Assembly (NCBI GenBank): GCA_965217895.1
Contig: CBDCJV010000002.1
Location: 5,142,100 to 5,206,099, forward strand
Direction: 5' to 3'
Length of the DNA: 64,000 bases
Origin: Waterburya sp.
GTDB lineage: Bacteria > Cyanobacteriota > Cyanobacteriia > Cyanobacteriales > Xenococcaceae
Shown here piece after piece: positions 3,013 to 18,945 of the stretch. The notes under the pieces were generated by a model. That model was not told the origin of the DNA, did not search any database, and saw only the letters and a list, made by a program, of their open reading frames with translations. The stretch's first letter is position 1. Every line of letters begins with the position of its first letter. Both the position numbers and the translations under genes were made by a program.

Positions 3013-5160
3013 ATGTCTATGGTTGACTTGTTGCGATATTGCGCTGGAATAACTTTATGGGCGTGTTTTCTACAAACATCTTCTTTAGCTTCGCAATTGT
3101 CTGAAGTTAAGACAAAAGCGAGTTTTCTGCCTAGCAAATTAAATTTATTAACCACGCAGCCAGATTCAGACATTACAACAAATTCTCCTCGTTATTTAAT
3201 TACTCAAGAACGTCAAGGTGAGCAAAGAAAATTTCAAATACCGACTAATCAGGAGTTTCAACCATCAATTCCCATTGAAGAAATTAAAGTAATCGAGGTA
3301 ATTGCCGATCGCCAAGAATATGACGAACAAAGAAAAGTAATTACGGCGAAAGGTAATGTAGTCATGCGTTTTGCTCAATCTGTCATGACTAGCGATCGCT
3401 TGGAAATAAATTTAAGCGATCGTCTTGCAGTTGCCAAGGGTAATGTCGTCCTTAAACGAGGTCAACAGGTATTGCGGGGAGCAAAGTTTGAATATTATCT
3501 AGTTAGCGATCGCGGTATGATTTTTAATGCCAGAGGCGAAATCTATCAGCCTAGTTTAAATCAAGATACCAACGTTAACCAAAGATTAGCACCAGAACAA
3601 ACAATCTTCGATCGGGCTTTGAGCGATCGCCTGATTAACGCCCAACCCTTAACAGGTGTAACTGCTGGTGAGGGTATTGGGGCTACTATAGGCAGCAGCA
3701 GAGATACAAATTTAGGAACTAGCAATAATTCTATAGGCGGGACAATTAATCGTCTGCGCTTTCAGGCTAATCGCTTAGACTTTGCTGGAACTAACTGGAA
3801 AGCAAGCAATCTGCGTCTGACTAACGATCCTTTTTCTCCGCCTGAACTAGAATTACGCGCCAAAACCGCTACTTTTGAGCAAGCTGCTCCTTTGGTAAAT
3901 AAACTGACTACCAAAAAGTCTCGTGTAGTAATTGACGATAGTTTAGCCTTACCACTTTTAGCTAGTACGTATGTCTTTGATGGTCGCCGTGGTCGAGGTG
4001 GTGGATTGTTTAGTCTGGGTTTTGACGGGCAAGACCGAGGCGGTTTATATATTGAGAGAACTTGGCGCATTCTTGACGGGACAAAATATAGCTGGAATAT
4101 TACTCCACAATACTTTTTAGAGCGAGCTTTATTTCCTACTACCTTTAGCTTTAGCAATGCTGAGGATGGAGGCTTTGATTTAGCAACGTTGGGCTTAAGA
4201 AGCGATTTTCAGGCAAATTTGACCCCCCGCAGCAATTTTGAAGCTAATTTTTCCTTAAGCAGCTTTAATTTTAATAATCTAGAAGATAATTTACGAGCCA
4301 AGGTTGGCATACAGCAAACCCTAGGTAATGTAGCTAATCCTTATACATTCGATCTGGCATACAACTATCGCGATCGCCTGTTTAATGGTTCTTTGGGCTT
4401 TCAAACAGTTAGAAGTAGTATTGGTGGGGTGCTGACTTCGCCAAATATTGCGATCGCTAATACTGGCGTTAATCTAAGATATCAGGCTTCAATTCAAAAC
4501 ATCAATGCCGATACCGATAGGCAAGACCTCTTTAACGTAGATAGAAACAATAACCGCATCAACCTTACTCGTTATCAGGGAGCGGTGTTTCTCAATAAAA
4601 GCTTTCCTATCTGGTCGGGAACAGCATTGCCAAGTAATCAATACCAAGGATTGCGCTATACTCCCGTGCCTGTAGTTCCCTATTTAGAAATATATACGGG
4701 AATTTCAGGAGTAGGTAGCTTTTATAGTAATAGTGATACTCAGCTATCTTTAGAAGGAACTATCGGTATTCAAGGGCAAATAGGTCACTTTTCTCGTTCT
4801 TGGCTCGACTATACAGGATTTAAGCTTGGTTACTCGCAAAATCTTCGTGGAGATGAATCGCCTTTTCTCTTTGATCGTTTAGTGGATCGTCAAGTTCTCG
4901 ATCTGGGATTGACTCAACAAATTTATGGACCAATTCGTTTGGGGGTTCAGACATCTATTGATTTAAATAATAATCAGGAAATCAGTACAGATTACCTTGT
5001 AGAATACAGTCGTCGAACTCACAATATTACTCTACGCTACAATCCCGTGTTACAAGTTGGTTCTTTTAGCCTCCGCATCAGCGACTTTAACTGGCAGGGA
5101 AATCCTCAACCTTTTGATAATGAAGGAATTAGCCCAGTTATTCAGGGAGTTAAACAATAA
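3013..5160 (+). CDS. LptD/OstA-like outer-membrane LPS assembly protein (DUF3769 type)
   Basis: OstA-like IEVIADRQEYD..AKGNVVMRF; TNDPFSPPELELRA; C-terminal YSRRT..LRYNPV..GSFSLRISDFNW. Confidence 0.8.
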   Translation: MSMVDLLRYCAGITLWACFLQTSSLASQLSEVKTKASFLPSKLNLLTTQPDSDITTNSPRYLITQERQGEQRKFQIPTNQEFQPSIPIEEIKVIEVIADRQEYDEQRKVITAKGNVVMRFAQSVMTSDRLEINLSDRLAVAKGNVVLKRGQQVLRGAKFEYYLVSDRGMIFNARGEIYQPSLNQDTNVNQRLAPEQTIFDRALSDRLINAQPLTGVTAGEGIGATIGSSRDTNLGTSNNSIGGTINRLRFQANRLDFAGTNWKASNLRLTNDPFSPPELELRAKTATFEQAAPLVNKLTTKKSRVVIDDSLALPLLASTYVFDGRRGRGGGLFSLGFDGQDRGGLYIERTWRILDGTKYSWNITPQYFLERALFPTTFSFSNAEDGGFDLATLGLRSDFQANLTPRSNFEANFSLSSFNFNNLEDNLRAKVGIQQTLGNVANPYTFDLAYNYRDRLFNGSLGFQTVRSSIGGVLTSPNIAIANTGVNLRYQASIQNINADTDRQDLFNVDRNNNRINLTRYQGAVFLNKSFPIWSGTALPSNQYQGLRYTPVPVVPYLEIYTGISGVGSFYSNSDTQLSLEGTIGIQGQIGHFSRSWLDYTGFKLGYSQNLRGDESPFLFDRLVDRQVLDLGLTQQIYGPIRLGVQTSIDLNNNQEISTDYLVEYSRRTHNITLRYNPVLQVGSFSLRISDFNWQGNPQPFDNEGISPVIQGVKQ

Positions 5161-5167
5161 CTAATAA

Positions 5168-5384
5168 CTTAAGTAGCAAGTAGCAGATAGCAGATAGCAA
5201 TGCTTTAAAGTAGTAATTAGCAGATAGCAGATAGCAATGCTTTAAAGTAGTAATTAGCAGATAGCAGATAGCAATGCTTTAAAGTAGCAAGTAGCAGATA
5301 GCAGATAGCAGATAGCAATGCTTTAAAGTAGTAATTAGCAATTAGCAGATAGCAATTAAGAAAGTTCAAAATTTGCTACTTAAG
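5168..5384 (+). repeat. Tandem array of ~37-bp units built from TAGCAGA/TAGCAAG heptamers, closed by a 12-bp inverted repeat
   Basis: Units at 5171, 5208, 5245 (37 bp), 5282 (44 bp) and 5326 (partial); CTTAAGTAGCAA (5168) / TTGCTACTTAAG (5373-5384). Confidence 0.92.
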
Positions 5385-5430
5385 TAAAGCTTGTCAATGA
5401 TAAAATTAAGTTACACAACTTAATTTTATC

Positions 5431-5650
5431 ATGAATAATCATAACATTTCGATACAAGATAGAACTAGAAATTTTGCGAATAGAGTAATAAAAGTCTATG
5501 TAGAATTAAACAAGAGAAAATACGATGATGCTGGTAAAGTTTTGTCTAAACAATTTCTTAGAAGTGGCACTAGCATTGGTGCAAACTGCTGTGAGGCTGA
5601 GTTCGCACAATCGAGAGCAGATTTTAGATCTAAACTAACTATTGCCTTAA
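5431..5650 (+). pseudogene. Four-helix-bundle protein (23S rRNA IVS / Avd-like family), 5' part, interrupted by integrated element
   Basis: RTRNFANRVI..LSKQFLRSGTSIGANCCEA..AQSRADFRSKLTIAL; family similarity stops at TTAAA 5647-5651. Confidence 0.9.
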
Positions 5651-5775
5651 ATTATATAACCCTCAATATTAATAATAAACAACAACAACAATGGTTGTAT
5701 TTTTTTCTGTTGAGTAAAGTTACAATTACCCAAATTCTATATTCTTTTACGAGTATTATGGTGTATAGTTAATAC

Positions 5776-6870
5776 ATGATGCTCACACTACAGAAAGGAA
5801 CTGACCCACACACAAATAAAACCATCTGGATAATGCTGGATGAAGACTATCAGGTAATCGAACCGATACAGCGTTATTTGACTTCTTTATGCGCTACCAA
5901 GTCGCCTAATACTGTACAAGCCTATGGAACAGATTTAAAGCGATGGTGGGAATTTCTCGACCATAAGTGCTTGGATTGGCGTAATGTAAATATTCATCAG
6001 GATTTAGAGGACTTTGCTTATTGGTTGAGAGTAGGAGATACAAAGGTGATTTCTCTACAGCCAGTAGAAGCCGATAGATCGGAGAAGACTATTAATAGAG
6101 CGATTACTGCTGTGTCAACTTTCTACGACTATCACCTGTGCAACCAAACAGTTGATTTTAGCGAGTTTGAGAGGTTTCATGCGATCTATAAAACGGGGAA
6201 CACCAGAGTCGGTACGACAGGTATATTGACTGGTATTGCCAAAGCAAAACCAACCAGGGAAAAGTTAGTCAAACTCAAAGAAACTAAGAAATTCCCAGGC
6301 TGTCTGACCGATGAGCAAATAGAAACATTAGTTGATGCCTGTAGCAATCTTAGGGACAAGCTAATGATTCTGATGTTTAACGGAACTGGCATACGTAAAG
6401 GTGCGCTTTGTGGCTTAAAACACGAAGACGTTGGGGATTTTGGAGATTACTTTATTCGAGTAGTCAGAAGAGAAGACAACCCTAATGGAGCATTAGTTAA
6501 GACAAAAGAGAGGACAATTCCAGTAACTAAGGAGCTGCTCCAACTATATGACGAGTACTTAATGAATGAGTATCCAGGCGTGGATTCAGAATATGTGTTT
6601 GTCAATATCTGGGAAGGGGATATCGGTGCGCCAATAATGCTGACATTGCCTAACAAAATACTTACAGGCTTGGAAGAAAAAACAGGTATTAGAGTTTATC
6701 CACATTTATTTAGACATACTTATGCCACTCGTCTTTTGAAAGCGGGATATTCACCAGAGAGAGTCAAATATTTGTTGGGTCACGCTAGTATTGCTACCAC
6801 TTTGGATGTCTATTCTCATGTCATCAACGAAACAAATCTATGGGAAGTAATCGAGAGAGAAGAAAAATGA
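5776..6870 (+). CDS. Tyrosine recombinase/integrase (TnpA-like)
   Basis: SPNTVQAYG SAM-like N-terminus; catalytic GIRKG, HLFRH, LGH...DVY. Confidence 0.93.
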   Translation: MMLTLQKGTDPHTNKTIWIMLDEDYQVIEPIQRYLTSLCATKSPNTVQAYGTDLKRWWEFLDHKCLDWRNVNIHQDLEDFAYWLRVGDTKVISLQPVEADRSEKTINRAITAVSTFYDYHLCNQTVDFSEFERFHAIYKTGNTRVGTTGILTGIAKAKPTREKLVKLKETKKFPGCLTDEQIETLVDACSNLRDKLMILMFNGTGIRKGALCGLKHEDVGDFGDYFIRVVRREDNPNGALVKTKERTIPVTKELLQLYDEYLMNEYPGVDSEYVFVNIWEGDIGAPIMLTLPNKILTGLEEKTGIRVYPHLFRHTYATRLLKAGYSPERVKYLLGHASIATTLDVYSHVINETNLWEVIEREEK

Positions 6871-8345
6871 GCTTAAATCAATTTGATTGGCTAGACGATT
6901 ATCAAGATCTATTTGAAGAAAAGCTACCGTCGCAATTATTATTAAATCCTCTGCTACAAAAAAATATATGGCATACAGTTAATGATTTAAACTTGAAGAT
7001 TAGTCCGCATCAAAAAGTATGGACTCTTAACTTTCAGAGTATTTCTCAAGATTGGTTTAGACTTCTTGTCAAGCTATACATATTAGTCAAAGCCAAACCA
7101 AATCAGCCTGGTAATACCATCAAAGGGTTTGTTATTTATTTGAGAGGATTCTCTAAGTTTTTAGACAAAAGAAATATTTACAGTCCCAAACATATAGATA
7201 ATCAAGTATTTGAAGAATTTGACTATTATCTAAAAGCTAAAGGGCTAAAAGATAGCTCTCTGGGACATTATCGAAGTACAATCTGCAATTTTTTCGATAC
7301 CTGCCGTACTGAAGGATGGATTGATGTTAATACTTATTGGTTTAGAGGCAAGCGCAACAGAGTTCATGTTAACAACGATGAAGTTGACTACATTCCCGAA
7401 GAAGTTTGGCATCAACTAGAAGAAAATCTACATTACTTGCCAGAACCAGTACAGAGGATGATCCTGGTAATAAAAACAACAGGTATTCGAGGTGGCGAAC
7501 TTTTAAATTTACCATTGGACTGTCTGAGGAAAAGAGGTAAGCAATGGAGGCTTCGTCTTACAACAGAGAAATACGACATTAAAGATGAAATACCAATAAC
7601 TGTTCCAGAATTAGTTGCAGTAATTAAAGAACAACAAAAATACATAAAACAAATTTTCGGTGATAAATTTGATAATTTATTTTGTAGCAATCATCCTGGT
7701 CATCATCGCAAAGATGGAACTCTTTCTTTTTCTCCTAACTCTAGTGTGATGAGTACAGGTACTTTTAACTTATGGCTGAATAGATTAGCCGAAAAAATTA
7801 ACATCCTTACTTCAGAAGGTGAAATCTACGAGTTTAAATCTCATCAATTTAGAAGGACAGTGGGTACTGTTATGACCAATGCAGGTGTCAGAGATTTAAT
7901 TGCTCAAAAATATCTCAGACATCGTAGTCCAGATATGTTGCCCCATTATCAACATCTTCTTAAGCAAACATTAGGAGATGAATTTGAGGAGTTGATTAAG
8001 GATAAAAAATATCATGATATATCGGGAAAAGTAGTCGAAATAATTAAAGGTAAAAATCCGATTACTGAATTTATTCGTCGCAAAATGTATCCTTTTACAA
8101 CCCAATACGGGGAATGCCATCGACCAATTTTAAAATCACCCTGTCAAACAGTTAATGCTTGCTGGAGATGCGAATATTGGCGAATAACCGATGGTGATTT
8201 GAATTATCTCAAAGAAGATTTTGCGAGAGTCGAGGAAGAATTAAAGGTAGCCAAAACACTTTCTATGACTAGGCAACAACAAGGATTAGAAGATGACAGG
8301 AATAACTTAAGTGCGATTATTCAAGGTGTAGAAGAAAACAGATGA
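6867..8345 (+). CDS. Tyrosine recombinase (TnpB of Tn554-like) with C-terminal Cys cluster
   Basis: TGIRGGEL, HQFRR, LRH.SPDM..HY; ECHR..PC...NACWRC; ATGA overlap with the upstream gene. Confidence 0.9.
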   Translation: MSLNQFDWLDDYQDLFEEKLPSQLLLNPLLQKNIWHTVNDLNLKISPHQKVWTLNFQSISQDWFRLLVKLYILVKAKPNQPGNTIKGFVIYLRGFSKFLDKRNIYSPKHIDNQVFEEFDYYLKAKGLKDSSLGHYRSTICNFFDTCRTEGWIDVNTYWFRGKRNRVHVNNDEVDYIPEEVWHQLEENLHYLPEPVQRMILVIKTTGIRGGELLNLPLDCLRKRGKQWRLRLTTEKYDIKDEIPITVPELVAVIKEQQKYIKQIFGDKFDNLFCSNHPGHHRKDGTLSFSPNSSVMSTGTFNLWLNRLAEKINILTSEGEIYEFKSHQFRRTVGTVMTNAGVRDLIAQKYLRHRSPDMLPHYQHLLKQTLGDEFEELIKDKKYHDISGKVVEIIKGKNPITEFIRRKMYPFTTQYGECHRPILKSPCQTVNACWRCEYWRITDGDLNYLKEDFARVEEELKVAKTLSMTRQQQGLEDDRNNLSAIIQGVEENR

Positions 8346-10120
8346 TGGAAATAAATTGGTCTAGAGATTATCAGCATGAATTTATTTGTCCTCATTGCGA
8401 TATTCAAGGTTTACGTTTAGCTGGCAAAGACAATTATACAAATAGGAAACTATTTAGATGCTCCAAATGTAGAAAAAGAATTTCTCAGTGTGTAAATATA
8501 AAATTTCCTAATAGTAATACTGGTATTAATTGGAACAAAGATTATAAAATAGGAGAGTTTGCTTGCCCCAATAAAGAATGTAATTCAAGGGATATCAGGC
8601 TTGCTAGCCAATCTAAAAAAAAGCAGCGTTTTACGTGTAATATTTGTGGAACTAAAACTAGAGAATCAATAGATCTTACGGAAAGCAATTTAGGTCAATA
8701 TGCTCATAAAAGACCAGTTAAGCCATTTTCTTTTCAAGACGATAAATGGGATATTAGGGCAATTAAATCACCAGCAAATAAACAAGAGAAGATTCTAATT
8801 GCTAACTTTCATACTGTAAAAACAAACTGGTTTAGAAATTTAACCAAGCACTACACATACCACCTCTGTAAGCTCAATAAACCTATAGGTGCAATTGAGT
8901 ATCATTTGATTAATCTTCGTATTTTTTCTCGGTATTTAGTAGAGAAAAATATAACTAATATAAATTTAATTAGCCGAAGTTTAATTCTTGATTTTCTCGC
9001 TTGGGATAATACGGGTGTAGACGCTACCAGAAAAAGACTCTCGACACTTAGAGATTTCTTCTGGACTGGTAATGTGCAGAATTGGTTTGTACTTGACCCA
9101 GATCTTGTAAGAGATAATGATTATCCTAAAGCGAAGGTAAGCAATCCTGACCCAATACCAGATAGCGTTCGAGAACAGATTGAAAGCAATTTACATAAGC
9201 TACCAGAGCCTATTGCTAGAATGTGGATTATTGCTTTTTTCACAGCAATGCGACCTGGAGAACTAGCTTTATTAAAGAAAGGCTGTTTGGTACAAGAGGG
9301 TAGCCACTGGAGCATTACTTGGCAACGTGGAAAAAACCGAGATTTTCACACAGTTCCAATTACAAGAATCATTGCCAAAGTAGTTCAAGAACAGCAGGAT
9401 TACATAGAGCAATTATGGGGAACTGAATGGGATTACTTGTTTTGTCATTATCAGCGACCTTCAAGCACAAGGCAATATAGCAATATAGATCCTGTTCAAA
9501 AAGTAATACCGAAAAATAATAGCCTGTTTTATGGAGCGATTGAATATCTAATCGAAACAGAAGATATTCGGGATGATAATGGTAAGTTAGCGACATTTAG
9601 TCCACATTTAATTAGGCATACACGCCTAACTCAATTATTTGAGCAAGGACACGACTTGTCAGTAGTTAGTGCATGGGCTGGACACAAAAGATTGGCAACA
9701 ACGAGTAATTTTTACACTCAAGTTAGTTGTGAACTAATTGAAAAAGAAGCAGGTCATATTCAAAAAGCTCTGTTTAATGCAGATGGTCAATACCATCAAT
9801 ATGAATCATTACCTAAATCCTTCTGGAAAGATCCTCAAGCTCATAAATTAGATCTTCCTGGCGACCATATTAACACACCTATTTATGGCTACTGTGGGCT
9901 ACCGTTAAATGAGCGTTGCAACAAGTTTAGAGCTTGTTATACTTGTCACTCTTTTGTTGCCTTCCCTGAGAAACTTGGACAATACATCAAACTCCGTGAT
10001 GAATTGAGAGCCAAAGAGTCACGAGCTTTAGCGAATGGTCAAGGTGTATTAGTAGAACAATTTAGTAGACAAGCCGACCAACTAGACAAAATAATTGCAT
10101 CGTTACAGGAGGCAGCATGA
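8342..10120 (+). CDS. Tyrosine recombinase with N-terminal zinc-ribbon repeats
   Basis: CPHC/CSKC/CPNKEC/CNIC; AMRPGEL, HLIRH, AGH..LATTSNFY; C-terminal YCGLP..CNKFRACYTC; ATGA overlap. Confidence 0.9.
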   Translation: MMEINWSRDYQHEFICPHCDIQGLRLAGKDNYTNRKLFRCSKCRKRISQCVNIKFPNSNTGINWNKDYKIGEFACPNKECNSRDIRLASQSKKKQRFTCNICGTKTRESIDLTESNLGQYAHKRPVKPFSFQDDKWDIRAIKSPANKQEKILIANFHTVKTNWFRNLTKHYTYHLCKLNKPIGAIEYHLINLRIFSRYLVEKNITNINLISRSLILDFLAWDNTGVDATRKRLSTLRDFFWTGNVQNWFVLDPDLVRDNDYPKAKVSNPDPIPDSVREQIESNLHKLPEPIARMWIIAFFTAMRPGELALLKKGCLVQEGSHWSITWQRGKNRDFHTVPITRIIAKVVQEQQDYIEQLWGTEWDYLFCHYQRPSSTRQYSNIDPVQKVIPKNNSLFYGAIEYLIETEDIRDDNGKLATFSPHLIRHTRLTQLFEQGHDLSVVSAWAGHKRLATTSNFYTQVSCELIEKEAGHIQKALFNADGQYHQYESLPKSFWKDPQAHKLDLPGDHINTPIYGYCGLPLNERCNKFRACYTCHSFVAFPEKLGQYIKLRDELRAKESRALANGQGVLVEQFSRQADQLDKIIASLQEAA

Positions 10121-10962
10121 GCAGCGGTAACGATGATACAAGAGAGTTTAGAGTCAATAACCTCAAAAAGACTCAGGAACAGAGGAAGCAAGAATCTCAG
10201 GATCGAGTTTATCAAGCTATTGAGCGATTGCAGAAACTCAATGCCAAGATCAACTTTCACACTATAGCTAGAGAAGCGCAGGTTAGTGTTAGTTATCTCT
10301 ATAAATATCCAGAGATAAAGCAACATATAGGAGTGCTAAGAAGCAAACAAAACTCTTTACCTGTTTCTCCTGTAGCCAAACCTAATTCTACGTCTCATGG
10401 CAAAGTAGTCACCCGTCTTCAAGAGAGAATCAAAAAGCTGGAAGCGGAGAATAAAGAACTCAAACGTAAGTGTGAAGCTTTAGCTGGTCAAGTTTATCGA
10501 GTTCATTATTTGGAATCTCAGGTAGAAAGATTACAGAAACAAAATGAAGACTTGAAAAGTAAATTGGGCGAACAAGAAATTGCCAGAAAAGTTACACCTA
10601 TTGACAAAAAGAGAAAGACCAAATCTGCTGCTTTCAAGGATGTCCAATCGGAATTAGATGAGCTGGGAATTACTCTGAATCCAACTCTCACTAAAACTAT
10701 TAAGGTAGCCAGCGAAGAAACTGTATTAGCTGCAATTGAAGCACTCAAAGAGCAATCTTTCAAACAAGATATTCCTAACCCTGGCGGTTGGCTGAACAAG
10801 GCAATCAAAGAAGGTTGGATAAAAGCAGAACCCACCTCTAGTAAGCCATCAGTTTCCCCACAACCAAAAATCGTTACTGCTACAGATAAAGCAAATAAGA
10901 AATTAATTTCTCCTAACAAGCTCAAGCAATTAAGCAATTTATTCAACAATCAAGATGACTGA
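10117..10962 (+). CDS. TnpC/DUF6262-like coiled-coil DNA-binding protein with extra C-terminal domain
   Basis: AIERLQKLNAKINFHTIAREAQVSVSYLYKYPEIK plus a long coiled coil; C-terminal NPGGWLNKAIKEGW; ATGA overlap. Confidence 0.75.
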   Translation: MSSGNDDTREFRVNNLKKTQEQRKQESQDRVYQAIERLQKLNAKINFHTIAREAQVSVSYLYKYPEIKQHIGVLRSKQNSLPVSPVAKPNSTSHGKVVTRLQERIKKLEAENKELKRKCEALAGQVYRVHYLESQVERLQKQNEDLKSKLGEQEIARKVTPIDKKRKTKSAAFKDVQSELDELGITLNPTLTKTIKVASEETVLAAIEALKEQSFKQDIPNPGGWLNKAIKEGWIKAEPTSSKPSVSPQPKIVTATDKANKKLISPNKLKQLSNLFNNQDD

Positions 10963-12274
10963 TAACAAATTCCCCCCCACTAACATAGAAGCTGAAGAAG
11001 CCATATTAGGAAGCATTTTATTTGACCCTGGTGCTATTAGTATTGCTGCTTCTATCCTCCCTGTTGAGGCATTTTATGTTGCTGCCCATCGTCATATTTA
11101 CAAAGCAGCATTAGAGTTACATAATAAAGACAAGTTGACAGACTTTATGGGCATTTCTACTTGGTTAAAAGACCATAAATCATTAACTAAAGCAGGAGGT
11201 ACAGCCAAGTTATCTCAACTGCTTAATCGTACTGTCTCAGCAACTAATATTGACCGCTACATTAATCTGGCTTTAGAAAAGTATCAGCGTCGTCAACTCA
11301 TAGCAACAGCTAATGAAATTGAGGCTTTGGGATATGATAATGCTACCGAACTAGAAACAGTTTTCAATACCTCAGAAGAGAAAATATTTAACCTTACTAC
11401 CAACAAGCAAGACAAATTCAAACCTATACCGATTGACGATTGTCTGGCATCAGTATTCAACAAAATAGAACAAGGTTCATCTCCTGCCTATTCTACTGGA
11501 TTAGATGATTTAGATGCTCTGATTGGGGGATTAATTAAACAAGATTTGATTGTAATTGCTGCTAGAGCTTCTATGGGCAAAACTTGGTTGGCTTGCCATC
11601 TGGCTAATCACATTGCCAGCGAGCAACAAAAGCCTGTAGTCTTCTTCTCGGCTGAGATGTCGAGCGAACAGCTAACTAAAAGATTCCTCTCAATGCACTC
11701 TGGTATTGATTCTCATAGGCTAATACACAATGAAATTTACGAGGATGAATATGATGTTTTAGTTAATGGTTTGACTCAATTGGCTGAATTACCTATCATC
11801 ATCGACGATACTCCTGCTACTCAGCTAACACCTTCTAAAGTTCGTTCTGTCCTGCGCAGAATCGTTTCTGAGAAAGGCGAACTAGGCTTAGTAGTCTTAG
11901 ATTATATTCAGAAGCTTGGCGACAGAGCAGCAGGGAATAGAGCGCAGACAGTAGGTAAGTTTTCAGGGGCATTTAAAGACATTGCTAAAGAGTTTGACGT
12001 TCCTTTTGTGGCATTGGCTCAAATCAATCGAGGTGTTGAATCTCAGGCAAATAAACGCCCTTTAATGTCTGATATAAAAGACAGTGGTGATATCGAGCAG
12101 GACATGGATTTGGGTTTGATGCTGTATCGGGACGATTACTACAACGATGATACTGACAACTTAAGCATAATGGAGATAATTGTAGGAAAGAATCGTAACG
12201 GTGGAACAGGGACTTGTAAAATTTTGTTTGAGCTAGATACAGGGATTTTCAAAAGTTTAAACAGTGTAAAATAA
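10955..12274 (+). CDS. dnaB: Replicative DNA helicase DnaB (element-borne copy)
   Basis: PPTNIEAEEAILGSIL; Walker A AARASMGKT; SAEMS; VVLDYIQ; AQINRGVE..KRPLMSDIKDSGDIEQD; KNRNG. Confidence 0.93.
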   Translation: MTDNKFPPTNIEAEEAILGSILFDPGAISIAASILPVEAFYVAAHRHIYKAALELHNKDKLTDFMGISTWLKDHKSLTKAGGTAKLSQLLNRTVSATNIDRYINLALEKYQRRQLIATANEIEALGYDNATELETVFNTSEEKIFNLTTNKQDKFKPIPIDDCLASVFNKIEQGSSPAYSTGLDDLDALIGGLIKQDLIVIAARASMGKTWLACHLANHIASEQQKPVVFFSAEMSSEQLTKRFLSMHSGIDSHRLIHNEIYEDEYDVLVNGLTQLAELPIIIDDTPATQLTPSKVRSVLRRIVSEKGELGLVVLDYIQKLGDRAAGNRAQTVGKFSGAFKDIAKEFDVPFVALAQINRGVESQANKRPLMSDIKDSGDIEQDMDLGLMLYRDDYYNDDTDNLSIMEIIVGKNRNGGTGTCKILFELDTGIFKSLNSVK

Positions 12275-12398
12275 TCGCAAGTAATTCAATATATTTTAAT
12301 ATATATTAAACAGTACAAATGTATACTAGACTAGGCTTCCTAGTTTGCAACTCTGAAGTGAGCATTGAATTTACAATTATTTTTTATAAGAATTTTAA

Positions 12399-14444
12399 AT
12401 GATAACCACAGATATATTTAACACAGATGTTGTAAACAAAGTTAGAAAGATAAAGCTCCCTATTTCCAAAGTTATGCTTCCATTATTTGAAGCAGTAGTA
12501 AATTCAATTCAATCTATTGAAGAAGTTAAAAAAGAAAGCATCAAAGATGGTGTTATTCAAGTTATTATCAACAGACCTTTTGAGGAGATAAGACTTCTTG
12601 ACGGTGGAGATACCTCTCCAGTAGAAGGATTTACTGTTATAGACAATGGAATAGGGTTTAATACGCAAAATTATAAATCTTTTCTAACTGCGGATAGCTC
12701 ACACAAACTTGTCAAAGGATCTAAAGGTGTAGGTAGATTCTTATGGCTAAAAGCATTTACAAATGTAGAAGTAGAAAGCTATTACCAAGAATTAGGAAAA
12801 TACTATCATCGTAAATTTAATTTTACAAGTGCAGAAAAACCAATATCTTTTCATGAAAATAAAGTTATTGATTCTACAGATATTAAAAATAAGACTACTA
12901 TTAAGCTGAAAGGTCTACAAGGTCACTATAAAATAAAATGTCCTCAAGATATAGAAAAAATAGGACTTAAAATCTTTGAGCATTGTATTTCATATTTTTT
13001 ACTAGAAAATGTCCCTACTATAGAAGTTATTGACGGAGAAAAGAGTCTAGATATTAATAAATTCTTTGCTGAGGATATAAAAAAATATACTGAAACTAAA
13101 GACATTAACATTGGAAAATGTAATTTTAATATTAAAAGCCTTAGATTTTATAACAGCAGTACATCCGATCACAGACTATTTTTCTGTGGACATCAGAGAG
13201 TAGTTTTAGATGAAGATCTCAGTCAGTATATAGTTGACTTATCACCTACAAGAAAAATCAGAGATGAAAATGGAAAGTTGTTTAAGTATTTAGCTTTTGT
13301 TTCTGGAGAATATTTAGACAATAATGTTAACTCTGAAAGAACTAGCTTTACTATCTCTGAAGATTATGATTTGTTGACTTCTAAAGAGTTTGGAGATGTA
13401 TCTTTTTATGATCTTAAAATGGCAGTAACAGAAGTTATTGACAATACATTGTCTCCATATCTCAAACAAATACAAGAAAACAAAATAGAAAGGTTTAAAC
13501 AGTATATTCGGAAAGATGCTCCCGAATATCGTCCTTTATTAAAATATGCTTCAAAAGAATTAGAGCATCTTTCTCCTAGTTTAAATGATACTCAGCTTGA
13601 GTTTCAGCTACATGGATTAATGTCCCAGTTTGAGATTTCATTAAAAGAGACTGGAAAACAAATATTAAGCGATCCAATTGATTGCTTTGAAAAATATCCT
13701 GAATATAGTCAGAAATATCACGAATTTTTAGAGCAGTACACAGATTTTGGTCAGGCAAAATTAGCAAAATACGTAGTTCACAGAAAAATAATTCTGGAAC
13801 TTTTCAAGAAAAATCTTAGAAAAGATGATGACGGCAGATTTAAGCTTGAAAAGGATATTCACGAAATAATTTTTCCTTTGAGACGAACATCTGATGAGAT
13901 CAATTTTGATGAGCAAAACCTTTGGATTATTGATGAAAGGCTAACATATCATAGATATTTATCTTCAGATCAGGCATTAGATAGTCTAGAAGATCTAAGT
14001 GTAAATAGTACTAGACGACCAGACCTACTTGTATTCAATAATCCTATAGCTTTGGTGGAAGGAGAACAACAGCCTTACTCTTCCGTAGTTATAGTTGAAT
14101 TTAAACGTCCTATGAGAGATGGTTATTCTGAAAAAGAAAATCCAGTAACTCAAGTTTACGATTATGTAAGAAAAATCCAGTCTGGCAATTATGAAGACGA
14201 GAACGGTAGGCTAATAAGCCTAGCAAATAGCACTCCCTTTTATGTATACATAATTTGTGATTTAACATCGAAAATAAAAGAATTTGCTGAAAATGCCACT
14301 TTTTTCCCGACACCAGATTTAGGGGGATATTTTGGATACAATACAAGACTTAATACTTACGTCGAGATTATTTCTTTCACAAAATTAATCAATGATGCAG
14401 AAAAAAGAAATAGTGTATTGTTTAAGAAACTTCATATAAATTAA
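12399..14444 (+). CDS. GHKL (HSP90/MutL-like) ATPase fused to a C-terminal PD-(D/E)xK-type nuclease; candidate defence protein
   Basis: LFEAVVNSIQS, IDNGIGF, GSKGVGRF (Bergerat fold); RPDLLVF..VIVEFKRP..TQVYDY. Confidence 0.75.
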   Translation: MITTDIFNTDVVNKVRKIKLPISKVMLPLFEAVVNSIQSIEEVKKESIKDGVIQVIINRPFEEIRLLDGGDTSPVEGFTVIDNGIGFNTQNYKSFLTADSSHKLVKGSKGVGRFLWLKAFTNVEVESYYQELGKYYHRKFNFTSAEKPISFHENKVIDSTDIKNKTTIKLKGLQGHYKIKCPQDIEKIGLKIFEHCISYFLLENVPTIEVIDGEKSLDINKFFAEDIKKYTETKDINIGKCNFNIKSLRFYNSSTSDHRLFFCGHQRVVLDEDLSQYIVDLSPTRKIRDENGKLFKYLAFVSGEYLDNNVNSERTSFTISEDYDLLTSKEFGDVSFYDLKMAVTEVIDNTLSPYLKQIQENKIERFKQYIRKDAPEYRPLLKYASKELEHLSPSLNDTQLEFQLHGLMSQFEISLKETGKQILSDPIDCFEKYPEYSQKYHEFLEQYTDFGQAKLAKYVVHRKIILELFKKNLRKDDDGRFKLEKDIHEIIFPLRRTSDEINFDEQNLWIIDERLTYHRYLSSDQALDSLEDLSVNSTRRPDLLVFNNPIALVEGEQQPYSSVVIVEFKRPMRDGYSEKENPVTQVYDYVRKIQSGNYEDENGRLISLANSTPFYVYIICDLTSKIKEFAENATFFPTPDLGGYFGYNTRLNTYVEIISFTKLINDAEKRNSVLFKKLHIN

Positions 14445-14524
14445 AAACTTATCGTATAAAGTATATACAACGATATAATCTATGTCACAAAATATGTGTG
14501 GAATTTTTAGGTCATATAATTTAA

Positions 14525-14667
14525 AAGAAGCAAGTGAAACTCGCTACTGGATATTACTTTTAATTGATAATAATATTGTCTCAGAAACAAAATTGGCAAT
14601 GATGCTAGATGAATTAAATCAAATAATAAAAATTCTGATTGTAACAACGAAAAAGCTGAAAGAGTAA
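14525..14667 (+). pseudogene. Four-helix-bundle protein, 3' part
   Basis: (K)EASETRYWILLL..ELNQIIKIL..KKLKE* continues KLTIAL; the join gives 120 aa. Confidence 0.9.
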
Positions 14668-14717
14668 TTGCTACTTGTTATCTGCTATCTGCTACTTTAA
14701 AGCATTGCTACTTTAAA
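14665..14717 (-). repeat. Heptamer/37-mer array inverted relative to 5171-5360
   Basis: TAATTGCTACTTGTTATCTGCTATCTGCTACTTTAAAGCATTGCTACTTTAAA. Confidence 0.9.
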
Positions 14718-14725
14718 CCCATTTA

Positions 14726-15478
14726 TTACTCGATAAAAACAAAGTAGCTTAGAGTACACACAGTAAAAATCAAAAATAGATTAACAATAAGCTGTACTTT
14801 AATAGCCAAACTAGTACTTTTTTCAAACTGATTCATTTGATGTCTCAAACGATCGAGCCTGAATTGCAGATTGGCATCTCGCTCTCTACGCAGAGACATT
14901 TCTTGTTTAACAATACTTTCTACGGTTTCGTTTAGGTTGTGGGGCGTTAACTGTTCAAATATACTAACTTTTTGTTCGATTTTAGCCAAAACCTTATCAA
15001 CGACGTTTAATTTATGGCTTAGGGCAGAATCTTGTGGCAAAGAGTTTTCTGTTGTAGACTTGCTAAAGTGTTTTTCTACCAATTTCAACGCTAATTGGAA
15101 ATAGCCTTTGTGAACGTGTCTAATTGCATCGGCTAATTCTTGGGCAGTGGTGTTTTTTAGCCAATAGCCTTTTGCCCCCAACTCCAAAGCATCAGCAATA
15201 TCCTGCTTTCGGTCATGGATACTAAGCATTAGAACTTTGGTATCGGCAAATTTTTGGGCAATGGCTTTGGTAGCAGCAAAACCATCCATCACTGGCATCT
15301 CAATATCCATTAAAACTATGTCTGGCTTGAGTTTTTCTACCTGAGCGATCGCAATTTCTCCGTTTTCAGCAAAACCAATTACATTTAGGTCTAACTCTGA
15401 TTCTAAATATGATGCTAAAGTTTTGCGGACAAAATTTTGATCATCGGCTATAAGGACATTAATCATCGCCATCTTCAT
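14726..15478 (-). CDS. Response regulator receiver protein with coiled coil and C-terminal TM helix
   Basis: VLIADDQ..PDIVLMDIEMPVMDG..GAKGYWLK; hydrophobic C-terminus; start uncertain. Confidence 0.85.
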   Translation of the reverse strand: MKMAMINVLIADDQNFVRKTLASYLESELDLNVIGFAENGEIAIAQVEKLKPDIVLMDIEMPVMDGFAATKAIAQKFADTKVLMLSIHDRKQDIADALELGAKGYWLKNTTAQELADAIRHVHKGYFQLALKLVEKHFSKSTTENSLPQDSALSHKLNVVDKVLAKIEQKVSIFEQLTPHNLNETVESIVKQEMSLRRERDANLQFRLDRLRHQMNQFEKSTSLAIKVQLIVNLFLIFTVCTLSYFVFIE

Positions 15479-15756: not shown

Positions 15757-18700
15757 GTGACTTCACTATCCTTGTTATCTAATGTTGAACAATTTTTAGA
15801 ATATTGCAGTCATTCTAGTGCCGATGCTTTTGCTGCCTTTAGCGAACTTTTAAATAGCTTGAAATCTCCTGAGACGCAGGCTCAAAATAGGCGGTTTTTT
15901 GGCTTAATTTATCAGACTTGGCAGTCGAAAAATCAGCAAGATTATTACTTTTCTTTTGTTACTCAAACGGTTAAAACCTATAGTGGCGATCGCCGTGAGC
16001 TTTTACTTTTATTATTTCCCAGTATTTTTGCCCCTGAAGAATGGTCGTTTACCTTTTATGAAGGCATATTACGCTATCCTGCCGAGGAATTTTATACCCG
16101 TCGGGTGGTAGAGTTAGGCTGTGGCAGTGGCTGGATTACTCTGGCGATCGCCTTAAATTCTTTGCCTGAAGTTATCTATGGAGTTGATATCAATCCACGG
16201 GCGATCGTCTGTTCGCAATTAAATCTATATTTGAACGCTTTAGACGAACAGGGAAATCCCATTTTAGATAGGGAACAAAAGACTTTAATTGACCGCGTTA
16301 AATTTGCTCAATCAGATTTACTAGAATTTTTTGACGATTATCCTCATCCCCTCGATCGCATTGTGGGCTGTATTCCTCAAGTACTCAATCCAGAATTGGA
16401 AGTAATGCGAGATTTGGTTAATCAAGGTGCTAATGACGAATTTCTCCATTCTTTGAGCAATTATTGCGAAAAACAGGGCTATGTAGAAGATCAATTTGGC
16501 TTAGGCTTGTTAGCTAAGGCGATCGAGCAGTCAATTCAATTACTCAGACCTACGGGTAAAGTTCTCTTTAACTTTGGGGGCAGACCAGGTGCATCAGTAC
16601 TAGAGCGATTGATGACTAGAAGAGGGTTAGAAATTCGCCATATCTGGCAAACCAGAGTCGAACAAGATCCTGATACGGATATTTCTAGCTTAGTAAAGAT
16701 CGAACAGGCTACAGGTCATCGGTTTGAGTTTTTTATGACCTCCCGTAGTAATGTGCCAATTAGTGCTGCTACCGCCCAAGTTTACAGCCAGCATGGAGGC
16801 AGAATATATCACTCTGTCTCCGTATACGAAGGGGTTTTGGCTTATCCTAACTGGCTCAAGCAAATTTTCGCCGTACTACAGCATCCTAGTTTGCAGGGGG
16901 TAAAAAGCGCACTAGATTTGACGGAAAATGATGCAGATGTGGCAGAAGAAAGATTTTACTGGCTAGCATCCTTATTTAGTTATCTTAATAACCAGAGCCA
17001 TTTTCCCTATGGACTGACAGCAGGAGAACCAGGATTACGCGATCGCATTACGGCTTATTTTCGCAACTATCATTCAATTCTTTGGCAGCCTGATGATTTA
17101 ATTATTACCCCATCTAGAAAAGAACTAATTGCTAATCTGTTAACAATTTATGAGCCATCGTTAATTGTTATCGATGAGGGATTACAGCAGCTACTACCCG
17201 TAAGTTGGCATGGCAGTCAGCAGGTTATTGAAGCACCGCGACGCATCCCCTTAGTTGGCAAATTAATGGTCAAGCTACGTCCGCAGCTTGTAATTACAGG
17301 ACTCAAAGCTTTTGAAATGACTGCACAAGAGCCTTTTGAATCTTTAGTCAATACAGCCAAAGAAATTGGCGCACTATTGATAGTGGATATTTCTGATAAT
17401 TTAAATCTTTCTAGCAACCCCGTTGATAATGGTTTGTTTGAATATCTAGCAGATCGCGGCTTGCCCGATCATGTAATTTTAGTTGCAGACTCGATCAAAA
17501 ATAGACTTTATCCAAGCTTATCTTTATGTATCTGCATAACTAACTCAGAGCCAATTCAACAAGACTTAATTAGAGCAGCAGAGTTGAGCTACAGTCGCGT
17601 TTGCCTGATTACCCAATATTTCTATCAGCAGCTTTTAGAACAGTTATTACACTTCCAGACTACCAGAGTGCAGCCAGCTAATAGGGAGCTTGATAAGTCT
17701 CAAAGCTTTTTTACCTTAGATCGTTCAGCCAATGCCACAAGAGCCTTTGCTCATCCTGCAATTAAAGAAAGTGAATTACCTTTTAAACCATCAACTATTC
17801 GCCTAGACTATGGTGAAAACTGTTTGCCATCTCCTAAAGCACTCAATAAAGCGATCGCCGAAGCCTTTGCCAGACAGGAGATCACCTCAGAAGAATGTGA
17901 AGTATACAAACCCCTATCTGCTATCTGTTCGCAAAAATACGGAATTAAATACGGCGATCGCGATAATTTTATTTATGGTTCAGGAGTAGCATCATTATTT
18001 AGTGCGGTGGTGCAGCAATGCCGTCAAGAACAAGGAGCTTTTATCTTTCCCCAAGGTGCTTACGGTTATTTCCGAGCAACCCTAGATTTCTATGGAGTTG
18101 GAGTACAAACGGTATTGGGAAACCCAGCCCAAGGTTTTAAAATCGATTTATCTAACCTAGAACAGATTCTCAAAACCACTGCTAATCCTTGGCTTTATCT
18201 TAATGCACCCATTTCTAATCCCACAGGAGCGTTATATTCTGCTCCAGAATTACAGTCAATTATTCAATTAGCTTGGCGGTATCAAGCAAAAGTTGTCTTA
18301 GACACGATTTTTTCTGGTCTAGAATTTGACCAGTCCCAACCCAAAACTGATTTATCATGGCTGCAAGATCGCCGTCACAGCAACTCTAGTAACTTAATCT
18401 TACTAGGTGGCATTTCCAAGGAATTTTCCGCAGCAGGGATACGTTTTGGCTATTTATATTCTCCCAGTGCCACTATAGTTAGACAAATAGCAGAATTTAT
18501 TCCTGGTCAGCTTCCCCAGACTACTATGTATGCTATGCGTCGATTTTTTGAGGGGGTGGTCAAAGACGATGCTGAACTTATTCAACATAGAGAAGCTCAG
18601 AGTCAACTTCTACAGCAAAGAGCCAAACAGCTAACAGCAGTATTGCAGCAATCTGGTTGGACAGCCATTGACCCACGAGGCGGATTGTTTTTAGTAGCAA

Positions 18701-18945
18701 AACCAAGTTTCCTCTTAGGCAAAACAGTATCTTACAAACAAGATAATGTTAGATATGAGACAGTCATTGATGGAGATTCTATTACTACCGTTTTATTTTC
18801 AAGTGTTGGACTAACGATCAATGGTGCTACCTGGACTGGGTTGCCAAACTATTGCCGTTTTGTCTTATCAGTTTCCGAATCTGAGTTTCAGGAGGCTTTG
18901 CAGCGAATTAAAGAGTTTTACAGTTCATTTGAGGTTGAACTATAG
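15757..18945 (+). CDS. Methionine S-methyltransferase, plant-type two-domain (SAM methyltransferase + PLP aminotransferase-like)
   Basis: PSIFAPEEWSFTFYEG, ELGCGSGWI, YGVDINPRA, RIVGCIPQVLNP, SLSNYC..QGYVEDQFGLGL, FNFGGRPG; C-terminal ISNPTGALYS, LDTIFSGL, GGISKEFSAAGIRFG. Confidence 0.88.
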   Translation: MTSLSLLSNVEQFLEYCSHSSADAFAAFSELLNSLKSPETQAQNRRFFGLIYQTWQSKNQQDYYFSFVTQTVKTYSGDRRELLLLLFPSIFAPEEWSFTFYEGILRYPAEEFYTRRVVELGCGSGWITLAIALNSLPEVIYGVDINPRAIVCSQLNLYLNALDEQGNPILDREQKTLIDRVKFAQSDLLEFFDDYPHPLDRIVGCIPQVLNPELEVMRDLVNQGANDEFLHSLSNYCEKQGYVEDQFGLGLLAKAIEQSIQLLRPTGKVLFNFGGRPGASVLERLMTRRGLEIRHIWQTRVEQDPDTDISSLVKIEQATGHRFEFFMTSRSNVPISAATAQVYSQHGGRIYHSVSVYEGVLAYPNWLKQIFAVLQHPSLQGVKSALDLTENDADVAEERFYWLASLFSYLNNQSHFPYGLTAGEPGLRDRITAYFRNYHSILWQPDDLIITPSRKELIANLLTIYEPSLIVIDEGLQQLLPVSWHGSQQVIEAPRRIPLVGKLMVKLRPQLVITGLKAFEMTAQEPFESLVNTAKEIGALLIVDISDNLNLSSNPVDNGLFEYLADRGLPDHVILVADSIKNRLYPSLSLCICITNSEPIQQDLIRAAELSYSRVCLITQYFYQQLLEQLLHFQTTRVQPANRELDKSQSFFTLDRSANATRAFAHPAIKESELPFKPSTIRLDYGENCLPSPKALNKAIAEAFARQEITSEECEVYKPLSAICSQKYGIKYGDRDNFIYGSGVASLFSAVVQQCRQEQGAFIFPQGAYGYFRATLDFYGVGVQTVLGNPAQGFKIDLSNLEQILKTTANPWLYLNAPISNPTGALYSAPELQSIIQLAWRYQAKVVLDTIFSGLEFDQSQPKTDLSWLQDRRHSNSSNLILLGGISKEFSAAGIRFGYLYSPSATIVRQIAEFIPGQLPQTTMYAMRRFFEGVVKDDAELIQHREAQSQLLQQRAKQLTAVLQQSGWTAIDPRGGLFLVAKPSFLLGKTVSYKQDNVRYETVIDGDSITTVLFSSVGLTINGATWTGLPNYCRFVLSVSESEFQEALQRIKEFYSSFEVEL

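Follow-up and report, generated by a model that had tools for sequence, protein, structure and literature searches.

A probable Tn554-related transposon with its own DnaB helicase in a four-helix-bundle gene of the cyanobacterium Waterburya sp.

The Tn554 family, which includes Tn554, Tn558 and Tn559, is described in the TnCentral preprint as having the gene order tnpA-tnpB-tnpC, inserting into radC and occurring in Firmicutes only, and actinobacterial relatives have been reported (PMC3414803). In the GInts (ginABCD), the 5' end of the element contains three recombinase-fold genes and then a TnpC-like gene, with cargo behind (PMC5385486). The SEs (gamma-mobile-trio elements), reported from Gammaproteobacteria, are the source of the copy-out model; they give nicked double-stranded circles and no empty site, and the same paper leaves the route of Tn554 unresolved (PMC10214605). 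Here we describe an element of 8,868 bp that interrupts a four-helix-bundle gene in a 64,000-nt stretch of the Waterburya sp. genome (contig CBDCJV010000002.1, positions 5,142,100 to 5,206,099; called the window). The element is probably a recently spread, Tn554-related site-specific transposon that moves by copy-out, in which two TnpB proteins would read the target, TnpC would couple the joint of the element ends to the element's own DnaB, and the host gene would be inactivated. Its features are as follows.

Positions 5646–5651, plus strand: left crossover hexamer CTTAAA, probably derived from the target (copy alignment and junction comparison).
Positions 5652–14519, plus strand: the whole element, 8,868 bp, with no difference among five copies.
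Positions 5652–5661, plus strand: left end, TTATATAACC, an imperfect inverted repeat of the right end with 9 of 10 positions matching (copy comparison).
Positions 5678–5691, plus strand: (AAC)n run, 26 bp inward from the left end, likely a protein-binding site.
Positions 5776–6870, plus strand: tnpA, tyrosine recombinase of 364 residues, 34–35% identical to Tn554-family TnpA.
Positions 6867–8345, plus strand: tnpB1, tyrosine recombinase of 492 residues, a TnpB paralogue (27%, E 1e-39).
Positions 8342–10120, plus strand: tnpB2, tyrosine recombinase of 592 residues, a TnpB paralogue (27%, E 2e-24).
Positions 10117–10962, plus strand: extended tnpC, 281 residues, with a TnpC/DUF6262 domain, a coiled coil, a four-helix domain and a C-terminal helix.
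Positions 10897–10944, plus strand: codons of the TnpC tail motif (residues 261–276), a predicted helicase-recruiting helix.
Positions 10955–12274, plus strand: dnaB, full-length replicative helicase of an element-borne lineage, above the TIGR00665 cut-off.
Positions 12399–14444, plus strand: cargo gene for a GHKL ATPase of 681 residues, 30.5% G+C, a candidate defence gene.
Positions 14510–14519, plus strand: right end, GGTCATATAA (copy comparison).
Positions 14520–14525, plus strand: right crossover hexamer TTTAAA, probably the footprint of the donor and identical to the left hexamer of the copy at locus L029.

The six genes inside the element code for three tyrosine recombinases, a TnpC-like protein, DnaB and the GHKL ATPase. 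The original prediction, made from the window alone, had described five overlapping genes; these are present and coupled, and the sixth, at 12399–14444, had been missed. Alignment with Tn554 TnpA and TnpB bore out its reading of the catalytic residues, as each of the recombinases retains R, H-x-x-R, H and Y. TnpA matched an annotated Tn554 family transposase A (34–35% identity, E 6e-49), and the alignment of TnpB1 and TnpB2 to Tn554 TnpB includes the C-terminal cysteine motif. The N terminus of TnpB2 contains cysteine repeats that resemble a zinc ribbon. The open frame of tnpB1 opens at 6840, but its start is likely at 6867, judging from the ATGA overlap there and from a homologue at L042. The N-terminal part of TnpC is 36% identical to Tn554 TnpC over 106 residues (E 6e-18); the extension comprises 155 residues, and the four-helix domain lies at about residues 169–232. 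Foldseek gave no match for the fold of the extension at E 0.001 or better. A model of the extension with a pLDDT of 61 reached its best VIA Z score, 7.0, with unrelated helical proteins, and a DnaD domain followed at Z 5.0 and rank 24; Atlas leads to DnaB_2 and RepB_C (0.80–0.82) are likewise weak likenesses and serve as leads only. Apart from one weak 20-residue match, the host genome contains no second copy of the extension domain. No primase, relaxase or iteron-type initiator gene was found among the genes inside the element, there was no Rfam match, and promoter-like sites occurred at chance level only.

Judged from its proteins, the element is Tn554-related without being a strict member of the family. 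TnpA, TnpB and TnpC are all homologous and in the same order, and the imperfect inverted ends, the fixed target in a coding sequence and a 6-bp footprint passed from left to right without target duplication are shared. In contrast to the exactly three genes of Tn554, there are four transposition genes and dnaB; tnpB is duplicated (single in some relatives), TnpC has 281 rather than 125 residues through an added helical domain and tail, and the operon is coupled to a dnaB gene. Insertion is at a codon of a four-helix-bundle gene (TIGR02436) rather than in radC, the host is a cyanobacterium, and the relatives have target motifs of their own.

The GInts resemble the element in layout, in their site-specific insertion into genes and in a 6-nt crossover, as far as layout and published description allow a comparison. 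They differ in that GinC is without the first arginine of RHRY, whereas all three recombinases here are complete, in that the long recombinases here are TnpB paralogues, and in their repeats of 10–17 nt against a shared flank of 6 bp; the main text of PMC5385486 mentions neither a helicase nor cyanobacteria. The SEs share the footprint rule, short imperfect inverted ends, a coupled four-gene core and few chosen targets, but the element has no Tfp-like inactive protein, and "helicase" does not occur in PMC10214605. Three adjacent, overlapping and catalytically complete tyrosine recombinase genes are also found in RIT elements, whose recombinases have 315–410 residues and which have 34-bp inverted repeats and no TnpC (PMC10214605, note to Table 1), as against 364, 492 and 592 residues, 10-bp ends, TnpC and DnaB here. 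A tyrosine-recombinase element described as uncharacterized is known from a cyanobacterial comM gene (PMC9881144). A literature screen, largely of titles and the beginnings of abstracts, returned no description of a cyanobacterial Tn554-like element with DnaB or with this target. The NCBIfam models GmtY and VPA1267 scored 33.9 bits (cut-off 340) and 17.5 bits (cut-off 90), with no row for GmtZ, and the proteins of Tn554 itself scored equally weakly or slightly better; we take these models to stand for the SE genes, and on this basis homologues of IntA, IntB, Tfp and Srap were absent at family level. The earlier statement that the module fits no known element cleanly stands to the extent that no described family matches exactly; the relationship to Tn554 at all three genes and the GInt-like layout go against it.

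Five copies of the element are identical over all 8,868 bp, one in the window genome (G000), three in G019 and one in G020. These are three species-level genomes of one genus, which indicates that the element has moved very recently. TTAAA is present at 5647 and 14521 as first reported, and this word occurs 191 times on the plus strand of the window. The inverted repeat of the original prediction exists as a 15-bp sequence, of which 10 bp (9 of 10 matching) belong to the element; the element itself runs from 5652 to 14519. Every one of the 59 left ends examined is followed closely on its inner side by an (AAC)n run. The left and right hexamers are CTTAAA and TTTAAA in the window, TTTAAA and CTTAAA at L029, CTTAAA and CTTAAA at L031, and TTACAA on both sides at L028 and L030. 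Because the six bases outside each end vary by site, they are crossover words and not a duplication. A 5-bp target duplication was ruled out, as the flanking words are 6 bp long and often unequal.

Among 30 elements with both ends mapped, the hexamers were unequal in 12 and equal in 18. In six of the 12 unequal cases the right word was the left word of another copy still in place: L024 matched L022, L032 matched L033, L057 matched L056, L069 matched L054 and L068, and the window and L029 each matched the other's type. The right word is shared and the left word different in L022/L024 and in L025/L027, and the left word of L032 encodes the residues seen at L131, an intact homologue of tnpB. From these cases the direction runs from the left word of the donor to the right junction of the new copy. 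The same rule is stated for SEs and Tn554 in PMC10214605, and by this analogy the footprint favours copy-out transposition.

No empty-site or circle joint was present among the matches listed, in contigs of four sequencing runs, a form of data that drops rare forms, and no RNA dataset with the element was among the matches listed. In runs X1 and X2, contigs of the element were covered about seven times as deeply as single flank contigs (241–260 against 31–35, and 1465–1582 against 174–232). Depth was not used as a sign of replication, since it is summed over organisms with several multi-copy carriers and X1 and X2 represent one sample, from which the window itself may derive. The proposal that the element is excisable and possibly replicating divides: replication was a fair guess, and excision that turns the host gene on and off is unsupported, the junction words following the SE and Tn554 rule, which in SEs goes with the absence of an empty site (PMC10214605).

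The interrupted gene lies in a cassette with the following parts.

Positions 5171–5356, no strand: left repeat arm of the cassette, with AGCAGAT-type heptamers in a 37-bp unit.
Positions 5431–5651, plus strand: 5' part of the four-helix-bundle gene (TIGR02436 / PF05635), which reads through into the element as a 113-residue chimera.
Positions 14526–14667, plus strand: 3' part of the four-helix-bundle gene.
Positions 14668–14717, no strand: right repeat arm, inverted relative to the left arm.

Removal of 8,874 bp gives an open frame of 120 residues with IALKEA across the joint, as predicted at the outset. A DNA search with the 5' half covered 61 genomes of the family, matched 33 of them and returned 25 loci. 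In 22 of these an uninterrupted homologue, up to 80% identical, continued across the joint (a few had stops or small inserts away from it), and the remaining three were element-bearing copies. Although TTAAA is common, the restored frame is therefore not due to chance.

All five copies occupy one codon (IA-L/Y-KE) in three different four-helix-bundle genes: the lptD-adjacent gene in three genomes, a gene between cas4 and cas2 (L028) and a third gene (L030). The 5' halves of orthologues match at 213–217 of 221 nt and those of paralogues at 121–163 of 221, the values against the window's gene being 123–125. In G019, the right end of a decayed relative is at the same codon of another four-helix-bundle gene (L120), and in runs X1 and X2 the contigs have loose ends at 5639 and 14552, suggestive of a junction between the element and yet another paralogue. 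At least one site is unoccupied, since G000 keeps an intact paralogue with a similar word (L100). A relative with a 92% identical TnpA (L067) is inserted at a different codon of a four-helix-bundle gene. The copy at L028 (3158–13346, G019) interrupts the cas4/cas2-interposed gene just upstream of a repeat array, and this insertion could affect cas2 expression. Otherwise intact four-helix-bundle genes at L126 (8785–9153), L150 and L151 contain in-frame inserts of 8–17 codons, near SIGAN or KEASET motifs and close to both codons used by the transposons.

The target gene is a variable cassette between inverted heptamer-repeat arms behind lptD. The cassette with its gene is missing at the lptD locus of G023, where lptD is 95% identical; nine other genomes checked at lptD were non-syntenic and had no four-helix-bundle gene within 1.5 kb. 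In G020 the cassette is inverted together with the element (L031/L124/L125), and in runs X1 and X2 a contig joint from 5158 to 14735 skips the cassette. The G019 orthologue of the target has gained a nonsense codon in its 5' half. The four-helix-bundle gene thus appears to serve as a landing site that is dispensable and present in several copies, and insertion would inactivate it, not switch it. A term search of PMC4679880 found no link between heptamer repeats and four-helix-bundle genes.

TnpA matches at E 1e-50 or better were obtained in 47 of 401 genomes of the order, and TnpC profile matches in 10 of 401 genomes of the phylum, with six candidates scored per genome; no TnpC relative was confirmed in viral contigs. 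Sixty stretches around part of these matches, chosen by score and contig extent, included forms with two tnpB genes and forms with one. The mobile, precisely inserted module of TnpA, two TnpB, TnpC and DnaB that had been proposed recurs across cyanobacteria; tabulation of synteny and targets, as the original prediction suggested, also showed that each relative has its own target and that dnaB is variable. The left flanks of the relatives end at fixed motifs, and Pfam named 13 of 28 flanks. The targets so named were IS605 tnpB (at several positions), RecD-like helicases (RecD2), a group II intron maturase, a photolyase, a CoiA-domain gene and an integrase; from their peptides, we take further targets to be a methyltransferase motif I, DUF932, endonuclease V and GIY-YIG.

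Pairs of elements with TnpA 84–92% identical and different targets are only 52–75% identical in TnpB1 and TnpB2. For the window and L032, the identities are 92% (TnpA), 52% (TnpB1), 59% (TnpB2), 83% (TnpC) and 85% (DnaB), and for L058 and L060 they are 84, 70, 69, 74 and 94% in the same order. By contrast, L038 and L040, which share a target, are 93, 96, 92, 97 and 95% identical. TnpB1 and TnpB2 therefore likely read the target while TnpA serves the element ends, as far as such sequence comparisons go.

The idea that single-tnpB elements use palindromic targets was rejected, as L025, L027 and L073 do so (8–9 of 14 positions) and L047, L074–L077 and L080 do not (3–4 of 14). At L025 (8640–13720) and L027 (6980–14420), a single-tnpB element lies inside the perfect palindrome CCGCTAA-N6-TTAGCGG beside another integrase gene; the palindrome is possibly the neighbouring recombinase's own site. 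Two distantly related elements of the family, each with dnaB, are arranged tail to tail in G026 (L040, 4884–17202). The tnpA genes of L068 and L069 in G305 are interrupted, at one shared position, by identical inserts of roughly 5 kb that contain three large open reading frames. The left end of a metagenome element (L243) is apparently inserted in a dnaB gene of the same family.

The helicase gene follows tnpC directly in 45 of 56 rows, two of which are places fetched twice, and the two reading frames overlap by 8 nt in the window. The ratio of nonsynonymous to synonymous substitution (dN/dS) of DnaB was 0.045–0.135 in 11 of 12 pairs, the other pair being saturated, and DnaB is thus evidently under purifying selection. 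In a quick tree, 25 element DnaBs were separated by a branch with SH-aLRT 100 from 15 others, each the best DnaB_C match in its genome and treated as chromosomal; the other members of the 30 loci had been excluded by a length and motif filter. The window genome also contains a separate integrated element (G000:C2, 4237575–4249536) with an integrase, a 332-residue initiator-like gene and a dnaB that is split or frameshifted, and its host dnaB (296423–299242) carries a large intein-like insert.

TnpC proteins that precede dnaB end in a short helix with the consensus KKLxSxDKLKxLSNIF (predicted helix at 266–276), the leucines of which are kept in at least 90% of 30 sequences. TnpC proteins without a following dnaB have a different domain of 70 residues in place of the helix tail. 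This pairing was also seen in metagenomes, where 79 loci (from the best 80 of 201) were analyzed, 21 being dropped as cut or near a contig end and one as a duplicate; two kept rows match contigs in the genome set. dnaB followed directly in 37 of 39 loci with the helix tail, in none of 15 with the other domain and in none of three with neither. One of the two exceptions has dnaB 186 bp further on, and in the other a dnaB-like sequence begins and is cut off. On a TnpA tree of 36 rows the tail label requires six changes, at least four of them forced by strong branches; the rows of this tree and of the metagenome set include kin and are not independent. The distant clades L045 and L046 carry the window's tail, with TnpC 32–34% but DnaB 83–84% identical to those of the window. 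The position and translational coupling of dnaB are fixed in single- and double-TnpB clades, and the downstream cargo varies freely. The pairing of tail type with dnaB suggests that TnpC may recruit the helicase through its tail.

The steps of movement can be proposed by analogy with the SEs. The recombinases would join the two ends on one strand only, with TnpA acting at the ends. TnpC may link this end joint to DnaB, its tail recruiting the helicase to drive copying. Replication of the nicked bridge would give a double-stranded circle that carries the donor's left 6 bp, and the donor would stay in place. The circle would then recombine with a new target recognized by TnpB1 and TnpB2, so that the new copy would have 6 bp from the target at its left junction and 6 bp from the donor at its right. 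Relatives without dnaB have the other TnpC tail and would presumably use a host helicase.

Several points weigh against this copy-out proposal. Neither a circle nor a transposition event was seen, and the steps of movement are all inferred. Six of the 12 unequal elements have no donor in view and the 18 equal ones carry no information on direction; right ends of single-copy elements were picked partly by hexamer likeness, which biases the set toward equal words. Intact-looking relatives without dnaB make up 11 of 56 rows, so that DnaB is not required by the family, and the linkage of DnaB that the original prediction expected in homologues is common without being obligatory. The tail and dnaB are adjacent and overlapping, and linkage alone could hold the pair together. 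As to the reading of targets, TnpB1 of L042 is 71% identical to that of the window yet uses a different site, and a target motif is common to L038 and L062 at a TnpB likeness of only 63–65%; at moderate distance, the target cannot be predicted from the similarity of TnpB. Cyanobacterial cells can hold several chromosome copies, and a donor staying in place is also expected after cut-and-paste in such cells. GInts and Tn554 relatives have been reported to give circles, and some GInts empty sites (PMC5385486).

These last points lead to the alternative of a cut-and-paste integrative element that excises both strands in the manner of an integrative mobilizable element (IME) or Tn916, after which the site is repaired; DnaB would maintain or amplify the circle or help its transfer, outside any copy-out step. 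The three complete tyrosine recombinases would suit it, as would the excision of GInts, which proceeds through cuts staggered by 6 nt and leaves empty sites in some cases (PMC5385486), the Tn554-family circles cited in the TnCentral preprint and the weak likeness of the helical domain of TnpC to DnaD- and RepB-type domains, a lead only. However, heteroduplex excision should put donor words on either side, and all informative cases have them on the right; the element is also devoid of primase, relaxase and iteron-type initiator genes. We regard this explanation as rather unlikely. It is improbable that dnaB is an accessory passenger of a Tn554-like transposon, for instance one that modulates host replication, with the tail pairing reflecting linkage. 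Such a passenger would explain why dnaB-less relatives look intact, why tail and dnaB overlap and why both moved as a block to the distant clades L045 and L046; it fits poorly with the fixed, translationally coupled position of dnaB beside freely varying cargo, with the conserved tail leucines and with the finding that 15 of the 18 dnaB-less metagenome rows lacking the helix tail have a different C-terminal domain and not just a deletion.

The original prediction had further proposed on/off control of the host gene by the element. The xis-type heterocyst elements undergo programmed excision and thereby restore a gene that the cell needs, and here too removal of the element restores the frame exactly, the hexamer difference between CTTAAA and TTTAAA being silent at a third codon position. 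In-frame rejoining would, however, follow from any such insertion, three paralogues are struck at one codon, and relatives strike insertion sequence genes and other mobile genes. With the nonsense codon in G019 and the absence of the gene in G023, control of the four-helix-bundle gene by conditional excision is very improbable, and this part of the prediction is not upheld. The Tn554-related transposon that moves by copy-out is the reading we retain. Tentatively, it can be extended: such elements may be the first tyrosine-recombinase transposons that bring and load their own replicative helicase, with TnpC as a recombination-coupled loader whose swappable C terminus docks the element's DnaB or a host partner, and with tnpB1-tnpB2 as an exchangeable target reader that redirects one chassis to new conserved coding motifs, here in the genes of another mobile cassette.

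The cargo gene had no PADLOC match. Its product had no match in the PDB as a single sequence, its profile gave a weak match to MLH1 (E 0.002), and SduA_C was matched weakly (E 0.004) in two of 34 members of the cargo family; we read its C terminus as a PD-(D/E)xK-like motif. Contigs of a marine metagenome (run X4) are about 92–97% identical to the end of dnaB and the cargo (region 12200–13600 of the window), and a diverged element with the same cargo thus exists elsewhere. Outside the element, the window contains a DDE transposase gene (PF13546) at 247–1326 that is unrelated to it. The gene at 15757–18945 codes for 1,062 residues and is an apparent fusion of methyltransferase and aminotransferase-like domains; we take its product to resemble plant methionine S-methyltransferase.

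How Tn554, the SEs and the GInts move is described as unresolved in PMC10214605, and so are the replication step within copy-out and the roles of the individual proteins. The element encodes a candidate for the missing replication factor of copy-out, and its natural variants, with and without the helicase and with swapped targets, make the copy-out model, the function of TnpC and the choice of target open to direct test. Should target choice lie with the TnpB pair, the family would supply site-specific integrases for a large number of conserved motifs. The element also shows a transposon using a family of mobile gene cassettes as its landing site. Its value lies in a tractable system for the mechanism of Tn554 and the SEs and for target reprogramming, and not in a gene switch.

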